A stretch of 64,000 bases of DNA from a bacterium. Its GTDB lineage: Bacteria > Patescibacteriota > Minisyncoccia > Phycocordibacterales > UBA2100. The position numbers were made by a program, and so were the translations under genes. Positions 2,408 to 54,292 of this stretch are shown in pieces (position 1 is the first letter of the stretch; each line of letters starts with the position of its first letter). The stretch lies in NCBI GenBank assembly GCA_030647655.1, contig JAUSJH010000003.1, forward strand, positions 11,013 through 75,012, in the 5' to 3' direction. The notes below the pieces were generated by a model. That model was not told the origin of the DNA, did no database searches, and was given only the letters and a program-made list of their open reading frames with translations.

Positions 2408-3601
2408 ATGATGAAATATATTTACGGCTTTTTGTGCGCGTTGCTTTTCGTACTACCGGTCCCTGCGTCTGCCGCGGCGACGAAATTCGAGGTGACCGGC
2501 TGGATTCCGTACTGGCGCGCGGCGACAGGCACTGCCGACACTATGCCCAACCTGAGCAAACTCACGGAAGTAAACCCATTCGTCTACACCATTAAATCCG
2601 ACGGCACGCTCCTCGATAATGGCAAGCTCGACGAGGAGCCATGGGTAAGTTTCATCGCCGAAGCCAAGCGGCAAAAAGTGCGCGTCATCCCTACCATTAT
2701 GACCGGCAACAGTGAACTCTTGCACAAACTCTTAAGCAAACAAAAATCGCGTATCGCGCTTGAGGATCGCATCACTGCACTGGTAAAAGAAAAGGGATTC
2801 GACGGCATCGATATAGATTTTGAAGGTAAGAAAGCCGAAGACCGTATCTTCTTCTCGACCTTTCTCAAAGGGCTCTATCAGCGTATGGGAAAGAAATGGG
2901 TCATGTGTACGATCGAGACGCGAATACCGAATGCCGACCGCTATTACGGGACAACCGTACCGCCGGATGCGGGTAAATTCGCCAATGACCTGAAGGAAAT
3001 CAACAAATACTGCGACCGTGTGCGAATCATGGCCTACGACCAGCAGAATATAGATCTCAAGCTTGCGTCCAAGTACGCCTCTTCCTCACAACTCTATGCA
3101 CCGGTGGGTGACCCTGCGTGGATAGAAAAGGTAGTGAATCTTATGGCGAAGGACATCAAAAAGAGCAAAATACTGATCGGCGTGCCGACCTACGGCTACG
3201 AACACGACGTTACTGCGTATGCCAATAATGAATACATATACGATATCCTCTGGACCTTCAATCCTGGTTACGCTATCCCGCTTGCAGCGCAGTACGGCGT
3301 TACACCGGAGCGCACGCCGTGGGGTGAGATGGCATTCACATACGTCCCAACCGCCGCTTCCACAACGCCGCCCATCTCGGTCACGACTCCCGCGCTTGCA
3401 GCCTCAGGAGCGGCGTCCTTGATAGCGACAGCTGTAAATACAAACCGGACGTTCCGTTACGTCGTGTGGCCGGACGCGCAATCTATCCAACAGAGAATAG
3501 AGCTCGCGAAGAAACTCGGCGTGCGGGGCATCTCCATATTCAAGCTCGATGGCGGCCAAGATCCGAACATATGGGCCGTGCTCCAAGGCGTGAAAAAGTA
3601 A
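2408..3601 (+). CDS. Glycoside hydrolase family 18 (chitinase-like / peptidoglycan hydrolase-like) secreted protein.
   Basis: Signal peptide (MMKYIYGFLCALLFVLPVPASA). GH18 catalytic signature DGIDIDFEG (DxxDxDxE). Confidence 0.7.
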   Translation: MMKYIYGFLCALLFVLPVPASAAATKFEVTGWIPYWRAATGTADTMPNLSKLTEVNPFVYTIKSDGTLLDNGKLDEEPWVSFIAEAKRQKVRVIPTIMTGNSELLHKLLSKQKSRIALEDRITALVKEKGFDGIDIDFEGKKAEDRIFFSTFLKGLYQRMGKKWVMCTIETRIPNADRYYGTTVPPDAGKFANDLKEINKYCDRVRIMAYDQQNIDLKLASKYASSSQLYAPVGDPAWIEKVVNLMAKDIKKSKILIGVPTYGYEHDVTAYANNEYIYDILWTFNPGYAIPLAAQYGVTPERTPWGEMAFTYVPTAASTTPPISVTTPALAASGAASLIATAVNTNRTFRYVVWPDAQSIQQRIELAKKLGVRGISIFKLDGGQDPNIWAVLQGVKK

Positions 3602-3632: not shown

Positions 3633-4370
3633 ATGGCCAGCGTTATGCCAGAACAATCTGCAACAAAAGATTACAGCGCTCTCTACACACCGCTCGCGAT
3701 ACTTCTCGCGGGCGCGCTTGTGGCAGGGGGGTTATATTTCGGTCTCGCAGGAAAAGCGGGAAATACGGGCACCGACCCTGCGCCAGTTGCGGTGGATATC
3801 AAAGACGTCCAACAGGATGGCGAGCCGTACATCGGTGATAAAAATGCGAAGGTCGTTTTGGCCTACTGGTTCGATTACCAGTGCCCGTTCTGCAAGGCTG
3901 TTGACGTGGGGGGTGTCGCAGGGATTCCGATTGAACCATCCATGCCAACTCTGATAAAGGATTATGTGAATACAGGCAAGTTGAAGATAGTATTCAAGGA
4001 CTACGCGTTTTTGAGCGACGACTCCTTTACAGCGGCGAACTACGAAAACGCGGTGTGGAAACTCTATCCGGACAAGTTCTATGAATGGCACGAGGCGATG
4101 TTTAAGGCGCAGGATGAAGAACACGCTGGTTTTGGCAACGAAGCCAGTATCGTTGCGCTCATGAAGAAAATTCCGGGCATCGATGCCGACAAAGTGAAGG
4201 CGGATGTTGCGGCGAACAGCGCGGCGTACCGCGAGGAAGCGGCTGCCGACCAACAGGAGGGCACATCTTTCGGCATCAGCGGAACGCCGGGCTTCATCAC
4301 CGGCAAGACTCTTATACCCGGGGCGGCCGAACTCGACAAATTCAAAGCGGCCATCGACCCGCAGCTGTAG
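3633..4370 (+). CDS. DsbA-like thiol:disulfide oxidoreductase, membrane anchored.
   Basis: N-terminal TM segment. Thioredoxin-fold CPFC active site ([12 protein letters not shown]) within a DsbA-like length. Confidence 0.7.
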
Positions 4371-21654: not shown

Positions 21655-22119
21655 ATGAACACGCGCGCATGGTGGGGAATTATCAGCATTCTTTTCATTA
21701 TCATCGTTGTTTTGACGTGGGTTCTTTTCGGAACGCCCGCACCGGTCGAGGCACCAACGGTTTCGACAAGTTCACCGCAAGCTACCTCGGACCCGCTCTC
21801 GAAGAGCGTGACCGTCACGTCGCCGAAAGCAAATGCGGCAGTAGAAAAGAAGTTCATCGTCGCTGGTTCTGCGCCGGGGACTTGGTTCTTTGAAGCATCA
21901 TTCCCCGTACAAGTGCGCGACAAGGACAACAATAAGATTGGGCAGGGAGTGGCGCAGGCGCAAGGGGATTGGATGACAACCGACCTTGTCACATTCACGA
22001 CAACCATCACACTTTCCGGAAATTACACCGGACCCGCAACTCTGGTCTTACTTCGCGACAATCCATCAGGACTTCCGGAAAATGATGACTCTGTCTCTAT
22101 TCCGATAACGATACAGTAG
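21655..22119 (+). CDS. Secreted protein with Ig-like (Gmad2-like) domain.
   Basis: Signal/TM at N-terminus. C-terminal 100 aa with Gmad2-like pattern (FIVAGSAPGTWFFEASFPVQVRD...LVLLRDNPSG). Confidence 0.4.
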   Translation: MNTRAWWGIISILFIIIVVLTWVLFGTPAPVEAPTVSTSSPQATSDPLSKSVTVTSPKANAAVEKKFIVAGSAPGTWFFEASFPVQVRDKDNNKIGQGVAQAQGDWMTTDLVTFTTTITLSGNYTGPATLVLLRDNPSGLPENDDSVSIPITIQ

Positions 22120-22143
22120 TGGGTCGCTCGACGGACATTGTCT

Positions 22144-22218
22144 TTTTCCGTCGCTATCTGCGCGTGCTCGCACAGCGCTCGGTCTCGGCCCCGACGGACC
22201 TGCGAAGCCGGAAAAAGA
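22144..22218 (+). repeat. Copy 1 of a 75-nt structured intergenic repeat (second copy at 51172-51246).
   Basis: Shared core CCGTCGCTATCTGCG...CAGCGCTCGGTCTCGGCCCCGNCGGNCCTGCGAAGCCGG, flanked by an 8-bp outer stem that differs between copies with compensatory changes. Confidence 0.5.
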
Positions 22219-22252
22219 CAATACCCGCACTCGCTGTGATAGCATAGGCCCA

Positions 22253-43650: not shown

Positions 43651-43735
43651 GGAGGCGTCGGATAGTGGTTTATTCCACCGCCTTGGAAAGGCGGCATGCC
43701 GCAAGGCATCGTGAGTTCAAATCTCACCGCCTCCG
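43651..43735 (+). tRNA. tRNA-Ser (anticodon GGA), type II with long variable arm; CCA not encoded.
   Basis: Acceptor GGAGGCG/CGCCTCC. Anticodon stem-loop CCGCC-TTGGAAA-GGCGG. 15-nt variable arm. T-arm GAGTTCAAATCTC. Confidence 0.85.
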
Positions 43736-43794
43736 CATCTATACACACCAGTAACTCGACACGCGGCCTGCGCGGGCTATCATTACACGTACGT

Positions 43795-44737: not shown

Positions 44738-44771
44738 AGTAAAACAAAACAGCGAACCGAAGTTCGCTGTT
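44738..44771 (-). terminator. Rho-independent terminator of rnpB (ACAGCGAAC-UUCG-GUUCGCUGU followed by UUUUGUUUU on the minus strand).
   Basis: 9-bp stem with UUCG tetraloop and U-tract immediately 3' of the P1 closing strand. Confidence 0.6.
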
Positions 44772-45130
44772 TCGCTGCATCTGTAAGCCGGATTCTGTCG
44801 AGGGCAACCATGTATCTGGGATGATTGTCGCCAATCACCTCAAGCGACTCTCTCAGTCACGCCGCACTGAGCCCTTCGAACTCAATGCGGCGCGACCAAG
44901 CACGGTCTTGCACGCAGGTAGGATTTTTGCCGTTGCACCCAGTATGTTTCCACACCGGCTCACCCTTGCGGGTGTCTTCGCCTCTCGGCTAAGACGTCTC
45001 TGTTCGCATCCCTTAGATTACCTAGGTGGGCGTTACCCACTACCGTCCTGCTCCTTGCGGAGCGCGTGTCCGGACTTTCCTCTCAACGCTTGCGCGCGAG
45101 CGGCTGCCTAATGCAGAGATGCATTATTTC
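44772..45130 (-). ncRNA. rnpB: RNase P RNA (bacterial type A).
   Basis: Minus-strand sequence contains GAGGAAAGUCCGGAC (P4 5' strand / CR-I), GGGUAACGCCC (P8-P9 region) and ACAGAAUCCGGCUUA (CR-V / P4 3' strand). P1 pairs CUGCAU with AUGCAG. About 360 nt. Overlapping track ORFs 44821-45111(+) and 45124-45534(-) are considered spurious. Confidence 0.8.
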
Positions 45131-51003: not shown

Positions 51004-51171
51004 CCCCGCCTAGGAAGTGAGCAAACTCGCAAGCCACTCGGGGAGTCCTGGTGCGAAGAAAACAACCATGCCGAACGATATGAGGATAGCAACCACACTC
51101 CAGACCCATTGGAGTACCTTTCTGGTGCGCTTGTGAAAAAGAAAACTCATAGACTTCGTTCGGGAAATACT

Positions 51172-51246
51172 TCTTGCCGTCGCTATCTGCGGCTACTGCC
51201 GCAGCGCTCGGTCTCGGCCCCGTCGGGCCTGCGAAGCCGGCAAGAA
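51172..51246 (+). repeat. Copy 2 of the 75-nt structured intergenic repeat (first copy at 22144-22218).
   Basis: Same core sequence. Outer stem TCTTGCCG/CGGCAAGA versus TTTTTCCG/CGGAAAAA in copy 1. Confidence 0.5.
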
Positions 51247-51288
51247 ACATTTCCACTCACTTCGTTAGTGTAATGCTAAGATTACCCG

Positions 51289-51660
51289 ATGGCAATACGC
51301 CAACGCAATGACCCTGTTCGTCTTTTCGGTAAGCGCCTGCTTCTCGTGGCGCTCTTCGTGGGCGTCATTGTCGCCATCGGAGGTGCGTGGAGTGCATACA
51401 AGAAGGAACGGGAATCCCGCGCGTTGCGCGTGGAAGCAGAGGCACAGCTTCGTGACTTTTCCGAGCGGCAAGCGCAGTTGGATTCAGATATAGCGAATTT
51501 GCAAACCGATCGCGGCATGGAGGGTGTGTTGCGCGAACAGTACGCGCTTGCCGCTCGCGGTGAGAAGCTCATCGTCATCGTCGAGCCCCAGAAGCCGGAG
51601 CCTATCGAAGCCCCTCCCTCGGTCCTGCAGTGGCTTCACAGGGTTTTTCCTTGGTGGTAG
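51289..51660 (+). CDS. Septum-formation initiator family protein (FtsB/DivIC-like).
   Basis: Short N-terminal cytoplasmic tail, one TM helix (LLLVALFVGVIVAIGGAW), then a coiled coil (RALRVEAEAQLRDFSERQAQLDSDIANLQTD). About 120 aa. Confidence 0.5.
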   Translation: MAIRQRNDPVRLFGKRLLLVALFVGVIVAIGGAWSAYKKERESRALRVEAEAQLRDFSERQAQLDSDIANLQTDRGMEGVLREQYALAARGEKLIVIVEPQKPEPIEAPPSVLQWLHRVFPWW

Positions 51661-51802
51661 GTGACCCCGCCCGAAGAGGGTGCCCGAAGGGGCCGAATGT
51701 CGGCCACCGCCGATATGAGGCGGGTCAGGCACGCACAAGCATGTGCGGGCCGCCTCGCTTGGGTGCTGGAATTCTGATAAATTTCATGTACACGGAGCGA
51801 AT

Positions 51803-51873
51803 GCGGGATTAGTTTAGTGGCAGAACGACTGCTTCCCAAGCAGTAAATACGAGTTCGATTCTCGTATCCCGCA
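51803..51873 (+). tRNA. tRNA-Gly (anticodon CCC); CCA not encoded.
   Basis: Acceptor GCGGGAT/ATCCCGC. Anticodon stem-loop ACTGC-TTCCCAA-GCAGT. T-arm ACGAG-TTCGATT-CTCGT. Confidence 0.8.
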
Positions 51874-52179
51874 CTAGAGATATTTCTTTCCGTACGCGCG
51901 CATTGCATCAACAACTTTTTGGAAAGCGACGCCTTTTTGAGTGGGCCGGTAATCAACGCGATTACCGAGCCTACGGGACTGGTGTCGGGAGACAAGCCCA
52001 GCCTCCTCGAGCTTTTTGAGCTTAAGTGTGAGAGTCCGGGAGCTAACGCCTGCGAGCGCAAGCTCGAGGTCGGTGAATCGTCGGGGTTTTTCGAGAAGAT
52101 CCCTCAAGATGATGATACTGACCGAATCGCCTACGAGATCGGCGACCTTGGCGATAGGGCAGGACCGGCACAGCACCAT
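51874..52179 (-). CDS. HxlR-family (DUF24) winged-helix transcriptional regulator.
   Basis: CPIAKVADLVGDSVSIIILRDLL...RFTDLE...GVSSRTLTLKLKKLEEAGLV matches the HxlR fold. Confidence 0.75.
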   Translation of the reverse strand: MVLCRSCPIAKVADLVGDSVSIIILRDLLEKPRRFTDLELALAGVSSRTLTLKLKKLEEAGLVSRHQSRRLGNRVDYRPTQKGVAFQKVVDAMRAYGKKYL

Positions 52180-53209: not shown

Positions 53210-53282
53210 GCCCTCGTAGTTCAATGGATTAGAACAGTCCCGTCCTAAGGGATCGATAGAGGTCCGATTCCTCTCGAGGGCA
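53210..53282 (+). tRNA. tRNA-Arg (anticodon CCU, tentative); CCA not encoded.
   Basis: Acceptor GCCCTCG/CGAGGGC. D-arm GTTC-AATGGATTA-GAAC. Anticodon loop GTCCTAA. T-arm AGAGG-TCCGATT-CCTCT. Anticodon assignment is less certain than the fold. Confidence 0.7.
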
Positions 53283-54216: not shown

Positions 54217-54292
54217 TGGTGCTTGGGCCCGGGATCGAACCGGGGACCTCATCCTCTTCAGGGACGCGCTCTACCAACTGAGCTACCCAAGC
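54217..54292 (-). tRNA. tRNA-Phe (anticodon GAA); 3' CCA encoded.
   Basis: Minus-strand acceptor GCTTGGG/CCCAAGC. D-arm GCTCAGTTGGTAGAGC. Anticodon loop CTGAAGA. T-arm CCCGG-TTCGATC-CCGGG. Ends ...ACCA. Confidence 0.85.

Follow-up and report, generated by a model that had tools for sequence, protein, structure and literature searches.

A dispersed palindromic repeat with a strand-specific structured core in Candidatus Kaiserbacteria and other Parcubacteria

The DNA considered here is a 64,000-nt stretch (the window) of contig JAUSJH010000003.1 from the patescibacterial assembly GCA_030647655.1. It contains two copies of a hairpin element of which we found at least about 180 copies in genomes of Candidatus Kaiserbacteria/Parcubacteria and in metagenomes. 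Each copy is a long hairpin of about 100-130 nt in which a hypervariable stem, P1, is capped by a conserved three-way junction of about 57 nt, and it is the fold of one strand, the minus strand in the window, that is conserved, independently of host transcription. The explanation that we favor, and that we would regard as about evenly poised, is that of a non-autonomous palindromic repeat element resembling the Rickettsia palindromic elements (RPEs) and the REPINs, with an unusually conserved structured core. The organisms concerned belong to the candidate phyla radiation (CPR), the members of which account for a large share of bacterial diversity, have genomes of about 1 Mb and have hardly been studied experimentally.

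Structure of the element and the strand that carries it

Both copies reside at the sites reported in an earlier note on this DNA, 22144-22218 and 51172-51246, and have a near-identical 60-nt core in common. The core 21-mer CAGCGCTCGGTCTCGGCCCCG occurs exactly twice in the window, compared with no occurrence in 100 shuffles. The note had described 8-bp closing stems, TTTTTCCG/CGGAAAAA in copy 1 and TCTTGCCG/CGGCAAGA in copy 2, that differ at two positions on both arms with pairing kept, as well as a hairpin CTGCGGC-TACT-GCCGCAG in copy 2. The pairing and the hairpin are as described, while the stems are in fact 20 bp (copy 1) and 17 bp (copy 2) long. A full-sensitivity scan of the whole window with a covariance model built from 47 copies revealed no third copy.

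Read on the minus strand, the element starts with the motif AGCGAG, a 1-nt bulge and the 5' arm of P1, followed by a bulge of 3-4 nt, P2 (UCGC) and an A. The middle is made up of the P3 hairpin (4-5 bp, loop GNCG), the segment J3/4 and the P4 hairpin (7 bp, loop AGCA), and the 3' part of AUA or ACA, P2' (GCGA), the 3' arm of P1 and the motif CGAGCG. The bulge reads KCU in type A, to which both window copies belong, and UXUC in type B. J3/4 is purine-rich and invariant (GAGACCGAGCG), the type B version being GAGAG-N-X'-AGCG. P1 comprises 17-31 bp. Its sequence is almost wholly different from copy to copy with pairing kept, and only a T-rich/A-rich inner part of the arms is common among copies.

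Copy 1 (22125..22235, minus strand, 111 nt; covariance-model match 22137-22222(-), 99.4 bits) runs from AGCGAG (22230..22235) via the 1-nt bulge, P1, the core and P1' to CGAGCG (22125..22130). The P1 arms GCGGGUAUUGUCUUUUUCCG (22209..22228) and CGGAAAAAGACAAUGUCCGU (22131..22150) form 20 pairs, three of which are G.U on the minus strand. They enclose a core (22151..22208), recognized by structure and covariation, that consists of the bulge GCU (22206-22208), P2 (UCGC, 22202-22205, paired with GCGA, 22151-22154), P3 (22187-22200), J3/4 (22176-22186), P4 (22158-22175) and AUA (22155-22157). Judging from their sequence, the two flank motifs could form the pairs G-C, C-G, G.A, A.G and G-C. CGAGCG is situated 5 nt from the stop codon of a plus-strand gene for a Gmad2-domain protein (21655-22119), and copy 1 fills the gap between this gene and nth. 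Copy 2 (51161..51259, minus strand, 99 nt; covariance-model match 51166-51251(-), 102.9 bits) is flanked by 7-nt direct repeats AACGAAG (51260-51266 and 51154-51160). Its P1 arms GGAAAUGUUUCUUGCCG (51238..51254) and CGGCAAGAAGUAUUUCC (51163..51179) form 17 pairs, among them G.U and U.G that read A.C and C.A on the plus strand. The core, defined in the same way (51180..51237), contains the bulge GCU (51235-51237), P2 (51231-51234 with 51180-51183), P3 (51216-51229), J3/4 (51205-51215) and P4 (51187-51204).

Helices P1, P3 and P4 are backed by covariation. In an alignment of 47 distinct copies (A4), 96.3% of the cells are paired, compared with 73.4% for shuffled partners and 36-50% for slid ones, and 21 of the 30 pairs change on both sides. 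The corresponding values for 100 distinct copies (A5) are 95.7%, 70.1% and 35-45%, with 22 of 30 pairs changing on both sides. Such changes affect 13 of the 14 modelled pairs in P1, four of five in P3 and four of seven in P4. The covariation that had been noticed between the two window copies is genuine and holds across these 47 and 100 further copies. Since P2 never varies, covariation neither supports nor refutes it. Position X of the bulge and X' of J3/4 also covary (G-C 49, C-G 43; 95% paired), and their neighbors are U-A in 90/99 and C-G in 69/69 cases. This one strongly covarying pair suggests that the bulge may pair with J3/4 as a short candidate pseudoknot. Tandem G.A in a CGAG/CGAG context, the bases of which probably pair, recurs at varying heights in P1 and at its base, and the AGCGAG/CGAGCG flank motif was found around 53 non-redundant copies. 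When copies of the same genome are compared, P3 and P4 show compensated differences and the junction bases are invariant, which argues against simple homogenization among copies.

The asymmetry of non-canonical pairs identifies the conserved strand. In the window, the A.C and C.A mismatches of the plus strand turn into G.U wobbles on the minus strand at every site in both copies (a C.A in the internal hairpin of copy 1, an A.C in the second hairpin and two sites in the outer stem of copy 2). The minus strand is also the more stable one by 3-7 kcal/mol, with folding energies for copies 1/2 of -42.6/-52.0 versus -38.4/-48.6 kcal/mol for the plus strand and, when flanks are included, of -54.6/-55.3 versus -51.8/-48.8 kcal/mol. 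Across the family, G.U outnumbers A.C in modelled pairs by 37:11 and 105:22 in the two alignments (142 versus 33), and G.A plus A.G outnumber U.C plus C.U by 94:15. The excess of G.U over A.C has the same direction in every gene context, be it antisense to both neighbors (29:8), sense to both (10:3), or antisense (18:2) or sense (19:10) inside coding sequences, and the choice of strand is thus independent of host transcription. Mutational bias was rejected as the cause of the G.U excess by reasoning alone, as the bias expected from transcription or replication is opposite in direction. The earlier note had placed both copies on the plus strand, directly upstream of nth and an ftsB-like gene. 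The two labels hold, nth encoding an HhH-GPD protein and the ftsB-like gene yielding only a weak DivIC match below the Pfam cut-off, and neither protein has an exact match on record. The placement does not, and as the fold belongs to the minus strand, the element is not a plus-strand leader of either gene.

Among 177 of the copies found, the gene located 3' of the conserved strand is convergent in 99 and co-directional in 48 cases. Convergent gaps (35) are more frequent than divergent ones (15), and 53 copies are antisense and 25 sense to both neighbors. The base of the hairpin frequently lies 0-15 nt from a stop codon. Terminator-like sites, i.e. a GC-rich hairpin plus a U-run, are absent from both window loci on either strand (0 found), and no conserved -35/-10 motif is present within 30 nt on either side of the copies (information at most 0.33 bit per position). 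Apparent flank conservation, CCAAC upstream and CCCTAC downstream, is weak and stems in part from orthologous loci, ribosome-binding sites and stop codons. Cumulative GC skew climbs steadily over positions 1-64000 of the window (mean about +0.03, plus strand), the conserved strand of both copies being the minus strand. As GC skew only tracks the coding strand, it speaks neither for nor against the idea that orientation is fixed by replication direction.

Distribution, resident genes and turnover

An exact-pattern scan with one genome per species yielded 45 matches in 44 loci, nearly all of them in metagenome-assembled genomes of Candidatus Kaiserbacteria and other Parcubacteria/Patescibacteria. 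Assembly JACRFI01 contributes 15 exact-pattern matches and contains at least 17 copies in all. A looser pattern retrieved at least 120 loci from metagenomes, and the covariance model matched 53 copies in genome loci and at least 129 (107 + 22) in metagenome loci. The family therefore does not consist of just two near-identical copies, the finding that according to the earlier note would have spoken against it, and its range corresponds to a class-level clade. Membership of viral contigs was dismissed because eight matches to an 18-mer proved to be chance hits with no element there. A profile of the element-encoded peptide run against 5.8 billion proteins matched only 13 tiny ORFs (open reading frames) and was uninformative.

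About one fifth of the copies reside in coding sequences. We found 37 copies, mostly of type B, within long ORFs without a stop codon or frameshift, and 34 of these occupy two of the six frames, namely sense frame 1 (n = 19) and antisense frame 2 (n = 15), even though in most copies all but one of the six frames are open. Both frames yield hydrophilic peptides rich in Gly, Pro and Ser, with ..GVSQADGPRGSAPRARGDSDP.. in sense frame 1 and ..GSLSP...GALPLGPSACETP.. in antisense frame 2. Predicted insert peptides of this kind, e.g. GVSQADGPRGSAPR and GSLSP...GALPLGPSACETP, would form part of TsaD, Tgt or UvrD. As the frame bias points to selection on the peptide, the inserts are probably translated and not spliced out. 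A PcrA/UvrD helicase with two copies aligns to the PcrA structure (E=5e-147) in blocks that are separated by the inserts, and a tRNA-guanine transglycosylase, likewise with two copies, aligns to the structure of Z. mobilis Tgt (E=2e-87), one insert being a clean addition of 36 residues after the CxCxxC zinc motif. Further hosts are TsaD, RecG, a class I aminoacyl-tRNA synthetase, UvrB, a formyltransferase, a pseudouridine synthase and peptide deformylase (def). In a class I aminoacyl-tRNA synthetase from locus L080, an element insert occurs together with a complete His_Phos_1 domain inside the catalytic domain.

By arithmetic, the bulge having a 5-nt asymmetry, inversion turns one of the two frames used exactly into the other. 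At the same sites in tsaD and tgt, the core is present in sense orientation in some genomes and in antisense orientation in others with the arms being the same, which suggests either that the core flips while the arms stay in place or that one site has been hit repeatedly. The ideas that the element inserts into hairpins already present or takes its arms from the target were rejected, as clean coding insertions are palindromic end to end. At tgt site 1, locus L106 has an antisense copy and loci L116 and L123 have a longer, more AT-rich sense copy (GC 0.48, 51.5 bits). The three loci are otherwise near-identical, and this site thus turns over quickly. Site 2, which in L106 holds the 36-residue insert, does not differ between L106 and L123, while the sequence of L116 stops short of it. 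In locus L053, site 2 (..CYSCSSRHGEASYTRAY..) features a short extra SRHGEAS that may be a remnant or footprint.

Several sites are filled in one organism and empty in another. The filled locus L003 differs from the empty locus L009 by a 140-nt insertion with a 4-nt overlap (TATG), and tgt site 2 is filled in L106 and L123 and empty in four relatives. Copies orthologous to those of the window are found at locus L007, upstream of nth (copy 1), and at locus L041, upstream of the same small ORF as in the window (copy 2). Since L007 and L041 are from other Kaiserbacteria, the window very probably belongs to a Kaiserbacteria genome as well. This 46-codon membrane-type ORF (51010..51150, minus strand), MSFLFHKRTRKVLQWVWSVVAILISFGMVVFFAPGLPEWLASLLTS, is located downstream of copy 2, which thereby lies in the leader of the presumed mRNA. 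It probably encodes a small membrane protein, and its start is conserved in L041 and L151. Upstream of copy 2, there is a sigma-70-like promoter, TTGCCA-17-TACACT (51267..51295, minus strand), that we assign to the small ORF and not to the element, since L151 has the same -10 box without the element. Compared with the empty site of L151, the filled site contains 113 extra nt including one AACGAAG. Copy 2 thus came to lie between the promoter and the small ORF served by it. In L151, where the element does not intervene, the -10 box and the ATG are 10 nt apart and the small ORF looks leaderless. In JACRFI01, nine copies at different loci have nearly the same inner stem, indicating recent spread.

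The core is under purifying selection at the nucleotide level where it resides. In seven tsaD orthologues, identity in the flanking coding sequence is 86%, 95% and 51% at codon positions 1, 2 and 3, and synonymous sites are thus saturated. The respective values for the element core are 88%, 88% and 97%.

A scan of the whole window against Rfam 15 at the gathering threshold detected only the class A RNase P RNA (44768-45119, minus strand, 122.9 bits) and four tRNA genes, Ser-GGA (43651-43736), Gly-CCC (51803-51874), Arg-CCU (53210-53282) and Phe-GAA (54217-54292). At E<=10, both element loci gave only chance-level matches (14.7 and 10.4 bits, where the cut-offs are 45 and 40), so that the Rfam scan proposed in the earlier note assigned no known family to either of them. 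Nor did we find a prior description of the element in Rfam or in the full-text papers searched, the coverage of which is incomplete. The family, perhaps new as such, resembles known kinds of palindromic repeats, i.e. RPEs and REPINs, and is a member of neither. Hammerhead, twister, pistol, hatchet, HDV and guanidine-II RNAs were considered and rejected, since there is no Rfam match, the loops are different and sense copies within essential mRNAs would not survive.

Some related arrangements were noted in passing. A variant with an extra perfect 10-bp hairpin, CCTGCCTGCC/GGCAGGCAGG, between the bulge and P2 is present in L156 (10560-10670) and L157 (8330-8450), and in L156 a solo 5' end of the element is located just upstream of it. 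A second palindromic family combines the AGCGAG...CGAGCG flanks of the element and a stem that is likewise long and variable with a different core of about 75 nt (..ATCGCGCAGCA..CATACAGYAGTGGTGATA..). It occurs in L071 (~640-760 and ~3180-3300) and L082 (~3685-3810), where it occupies the site at which L126 carries the element studied here. In the window, the ftsB-like gene and the gene for tRNA-Gly are separated by intergenic DNA that is GC-rich and folds well (51655-51765, minus strand). This stretch begins with CCAAGCGAG, the flank motif of the element, and ends with ..ACCTACCACC. It has no Rfam match and no copy in the fetched loci.

Competing explanations

In the palindromic-repeat reading, the family behaves like a non-autonomous selfish element. 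It is dispersed, present in many copies, gained or lost at orthologous sites and found in either orientation, and in relatives it occurs in frame in housekeeping genes, where the ribosome would read through it. The fold may act in a single-stranded copy of the element. Single-stranded DNA would be a more likely form of this copy than a dedicated transcript because the conserved strand ignores host transcription, the element brings along neither promoter nor terminator, and G.T and G.A are tolerated by single-stranded DNA just as by RNA. The core would be recognized in trans by a structure-specific protein encoded elsewhere in the genome, and the stem would only present the core and join the ends. 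The twofold excess of antisense copies may reflect tolerance by the host, since the mRNA then carries the weaker, mismatched complement. Among the alternatives put forward in the earlier note, a MITE-like element (miniature inverted-repeat transposable element) with inverted-repeat ends comes closest. That comparison fails in so far as the arms are not conserved in sequence and a consistent target-site duplication is lacking.

A number of observations weigh against this explanation. The most serious of them is that resident copies are under purifying selection. This is unlike the decay of selfish DNA and fits a host-level function better, and each copy may have such a function. The two clean pairs of filled and empty sites give repeats of unequal length, 4 and 7 nt, flank duplication is not significant across the family (4.64 versus 4.44 +/- 0.13, z ~1.6), and no target duplication is discernible by eye for the nine young copies of JACRFI01. 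About 1.2 Mb of flanking DNA contain no transposase, RAYT or other candidate enzyme beside copies or between inverted pairs, and no parent insertion sequence was seen there. The genes between inverted pairs, encoding an FAD oxidase, a flavodoxin-like protein and a methyltransferase-like ORF, are housekeeping genes, which speaks against a composite transposon or RAYT system. A tblastn search of the flanks with approximate IS608 TnpA and RAYT-like queries, a weak test, gave no match. The arms are without sequence conservation, unlike the terminal repeats of MITEs or the ends of REPs, and the conserved strand is mostly antisense to genes, opposite to what would be expected for a lagging-strand template in an IS608-type mechanism. 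That expectation assumes genes that are mostly co-oriented with replication. Finally, G.U pairs, tandem G.A and a pseudoknot are no less compatible with RNA than with single-stranded DNA.

A bolder reading takes the element for more than tolerated selfish DNA. It would be a novel type of strand-specific, pseudoknotted nucleic-acid module kept by selection at each site, including essential genes and in either orientation, for example as a partnership of replicator and host with a structure-specific enzyme or as a single-stranded DNA signal that acts genome-wide and is peculiar to CPR bacteria. We consider this tentative and somewhat doubtful. Another proposal, in our judgment unlikely, sees a structural element maintained by the host. 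Each copy would be a functional site, for example one bound by a protein that takes part in replication, repair, recombination or the organization of the chromosome and has folded single-stranded DNA or RNA as its substrate, with transposition being ancient or incidental. It accounts well for purifying selection on the core at orthologous sites with saturated flanking synonymous positions, for junction bases that are invariant in both types and all sampled lineages while stems vary within one genome, and for orthologous copies that persist across species of a class-level clade with compensated changes in their stems. Yet there is no obvious function that would require copies in gaps as well as, placed either way, in tsaD, tgt, uvrD, recG, uvrB and def. 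Moreover, one and the same site may be filled in one relative and empty in another, and no candidate binding protein was found.

The earlier note had put forward a small structured RNA or a cis-regulatory RNA. Small structured RNA genes or regulatory leaders transcribed from the minus strand would explain covariation in three helices, the strand-specific G.U and G.A pairs and the candidate pseudoknot, and copy 2 does follow a sigma-70-like promoter and form part of a small ORF's leader. That promoter, however, is the small ORF's own and exists without the element in L151, a conserved promoter or terminator does not flank the family, 99 of 147 copies face a convergent gene on the downstream side of the conserved strand, 15 copies keep the fold in antisense orientation inside coding sequences, and Rfam offers no match even at E<=10. 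With its mixed orientation to neighboring genes, antisense by 2:1, and copies placed both ways in coding sequences, we hold the family quite unlikely to be one of RNA genes. It is improbable that the hairpin serves in mRNA as a terminator or as a REP-, Correia- or ERIC-like stabilizer or RNase III site. Its frequent position 0-15 nt from a stop codon and the preference for convergent (35) over divergent (15) gaps would suit such a role, and stems of 17-31 bp would be RNase III substrates either way, for which Correia elements set a precedent (PMC10969869). But no U-tract follows the stem and no terminator-like site was found at the window loci, the conserved core would go unexplained, the conserved strand is usually not the mRNA strand, and within coding sequences such a hairpin would do harm. 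Insertions in rRNA genes are a known trait of CPR bacteria, and an intervening sequence removed from RNA in an intron-like manner or from protein would fit with a long stem that joins the flanks and a core whose conservation is not codon-like. This we judge very improbable, as copies in genes are always open and in frame and use two frames only, a strand-specific RNA fold could not excise copies in antisense orientation, the majority of copies lie between genes and intein motifs are absent. A recent local duplication or chance similarity, which the presence of just two copies in the window might suggest, is scarcely credible and was rejected in view of at least about 180 copies elsewhere, the unrelated flanks of the window copies and a shared 21-mer that is unexpected by chance.

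Several consequences follow for annotation and interpretation. The element produces spurious ORFs, as in the window, where the earlier statement that the nucleotide element and not a protein is conserved is borne out; in relatives, the same reading frame is part of real proteins, and the element accounts for odd insertions in CPR proteins. It also represents a clear case in which strong covariation need not mean an RNA gene, the strand on which the fold is kept being the same whichever way the host transcribes. A conserved core of the three-way-junction type would imply a structure-specific protein that, if found, may reveal a new mechanism of mobilization or DNA handling.

Comparison with known systems

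Intragenic invertible segments are readable in both orientations. In mitochondrial genes of Nematomorpha, according to the account in PMC6649704, coding palindromes occur in which long inverted repeats are tolerated and both arms encode protein. The present element resembles both in these respects. Neither system forms a dispersed family with a shared core, and in the present element no invertase site is evident, as the arms vary. Members of the IS200/IS605 family are recognized strand-specifically as folded single-stranded DNA hairpins and do not duplicate their target. They possess two different subterminal hairpins and specific cleavage tetranucleotides, while the element is a single long hairpin that ends in a junction core. 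The bias in orientation observed here is opposite to the prediction from their mechanism, which is cited in PMC3116915, and the weak test mentioned above matched no Y1 transposase. Classical MITEs such as Correia, ERIC, RUP and Coxiella QMITE are small, dispersed and non-coding, give rise to stable stem-loop transcripts and occasionally form in-frame fusions (PMC10969869, PMC5896051). The element shares with them a size of about 100-130 nt, a dispersed multi-copy distribution and the potential to part a promoter from its gene, as copy 2 does. It differs in that MITEs have the sequence-conserved terminal inverted repeats of a parent insertion sequence and duplications of fixed length, while the arms of the element lack conservation and the repeats flanking it are inconsistent.

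REPINs come closer. They are hairpins with frequent compensatory changes that persist for long times, and a single-stranded intermediate has been proposed for them (PMC3116915). They are proposed to be recognized in trans, as single-stranded DNA hairpins, by a single-copy enzyme, RAYT, without target duplication (PMC3116915, PMC3337134). Both are hairpin-forming, non-autonomous repeats kept by compensatory changes. In REPINs, the ends are conserved (two inverted REP 16-mers) and the center is variable, while the reverse is the case here. REPINs are extragenic only, in contrast to about one fifth of our copies, and their hallmark, a RAYT gene flanked by REPs, was not found near copies.

The closest parallel in behavior is provided by the RPEs, described in PMC10969869 (citing Ogata 2000, 2002) as palindromic repeats in reduced genomes of host-dependent bacteria that occur in frame in Rickettsia genes. 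As portrayed there, RPEs are palindromes of about 100-150 bp that are located in intergenic regions and also, in frame, within housekeeping genes that are unrelated to one another. Their inserts are translated into an extra peptide and a transposase is not linked to them. Our family shares these features, translation being probable in its case. Predicted in-frame read-through, a feature of this class, is seen in the family (34 copies, two frames) and not in the window copies. RPEs differ in that the present element has a conserved three-way junction at its center with hypervariable arms and a fold on one strand only, that its core is under purifying selection at the nucleotide level and that it is found both ways at the same gene site. 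RPEs reside in a different phylum, so that homology is unlikely, and we liken the two by behavior without claiming a relationship in sequence. The parallel suggests that such elements are a shared outcome of genome reduction in host-dependent bacteria.

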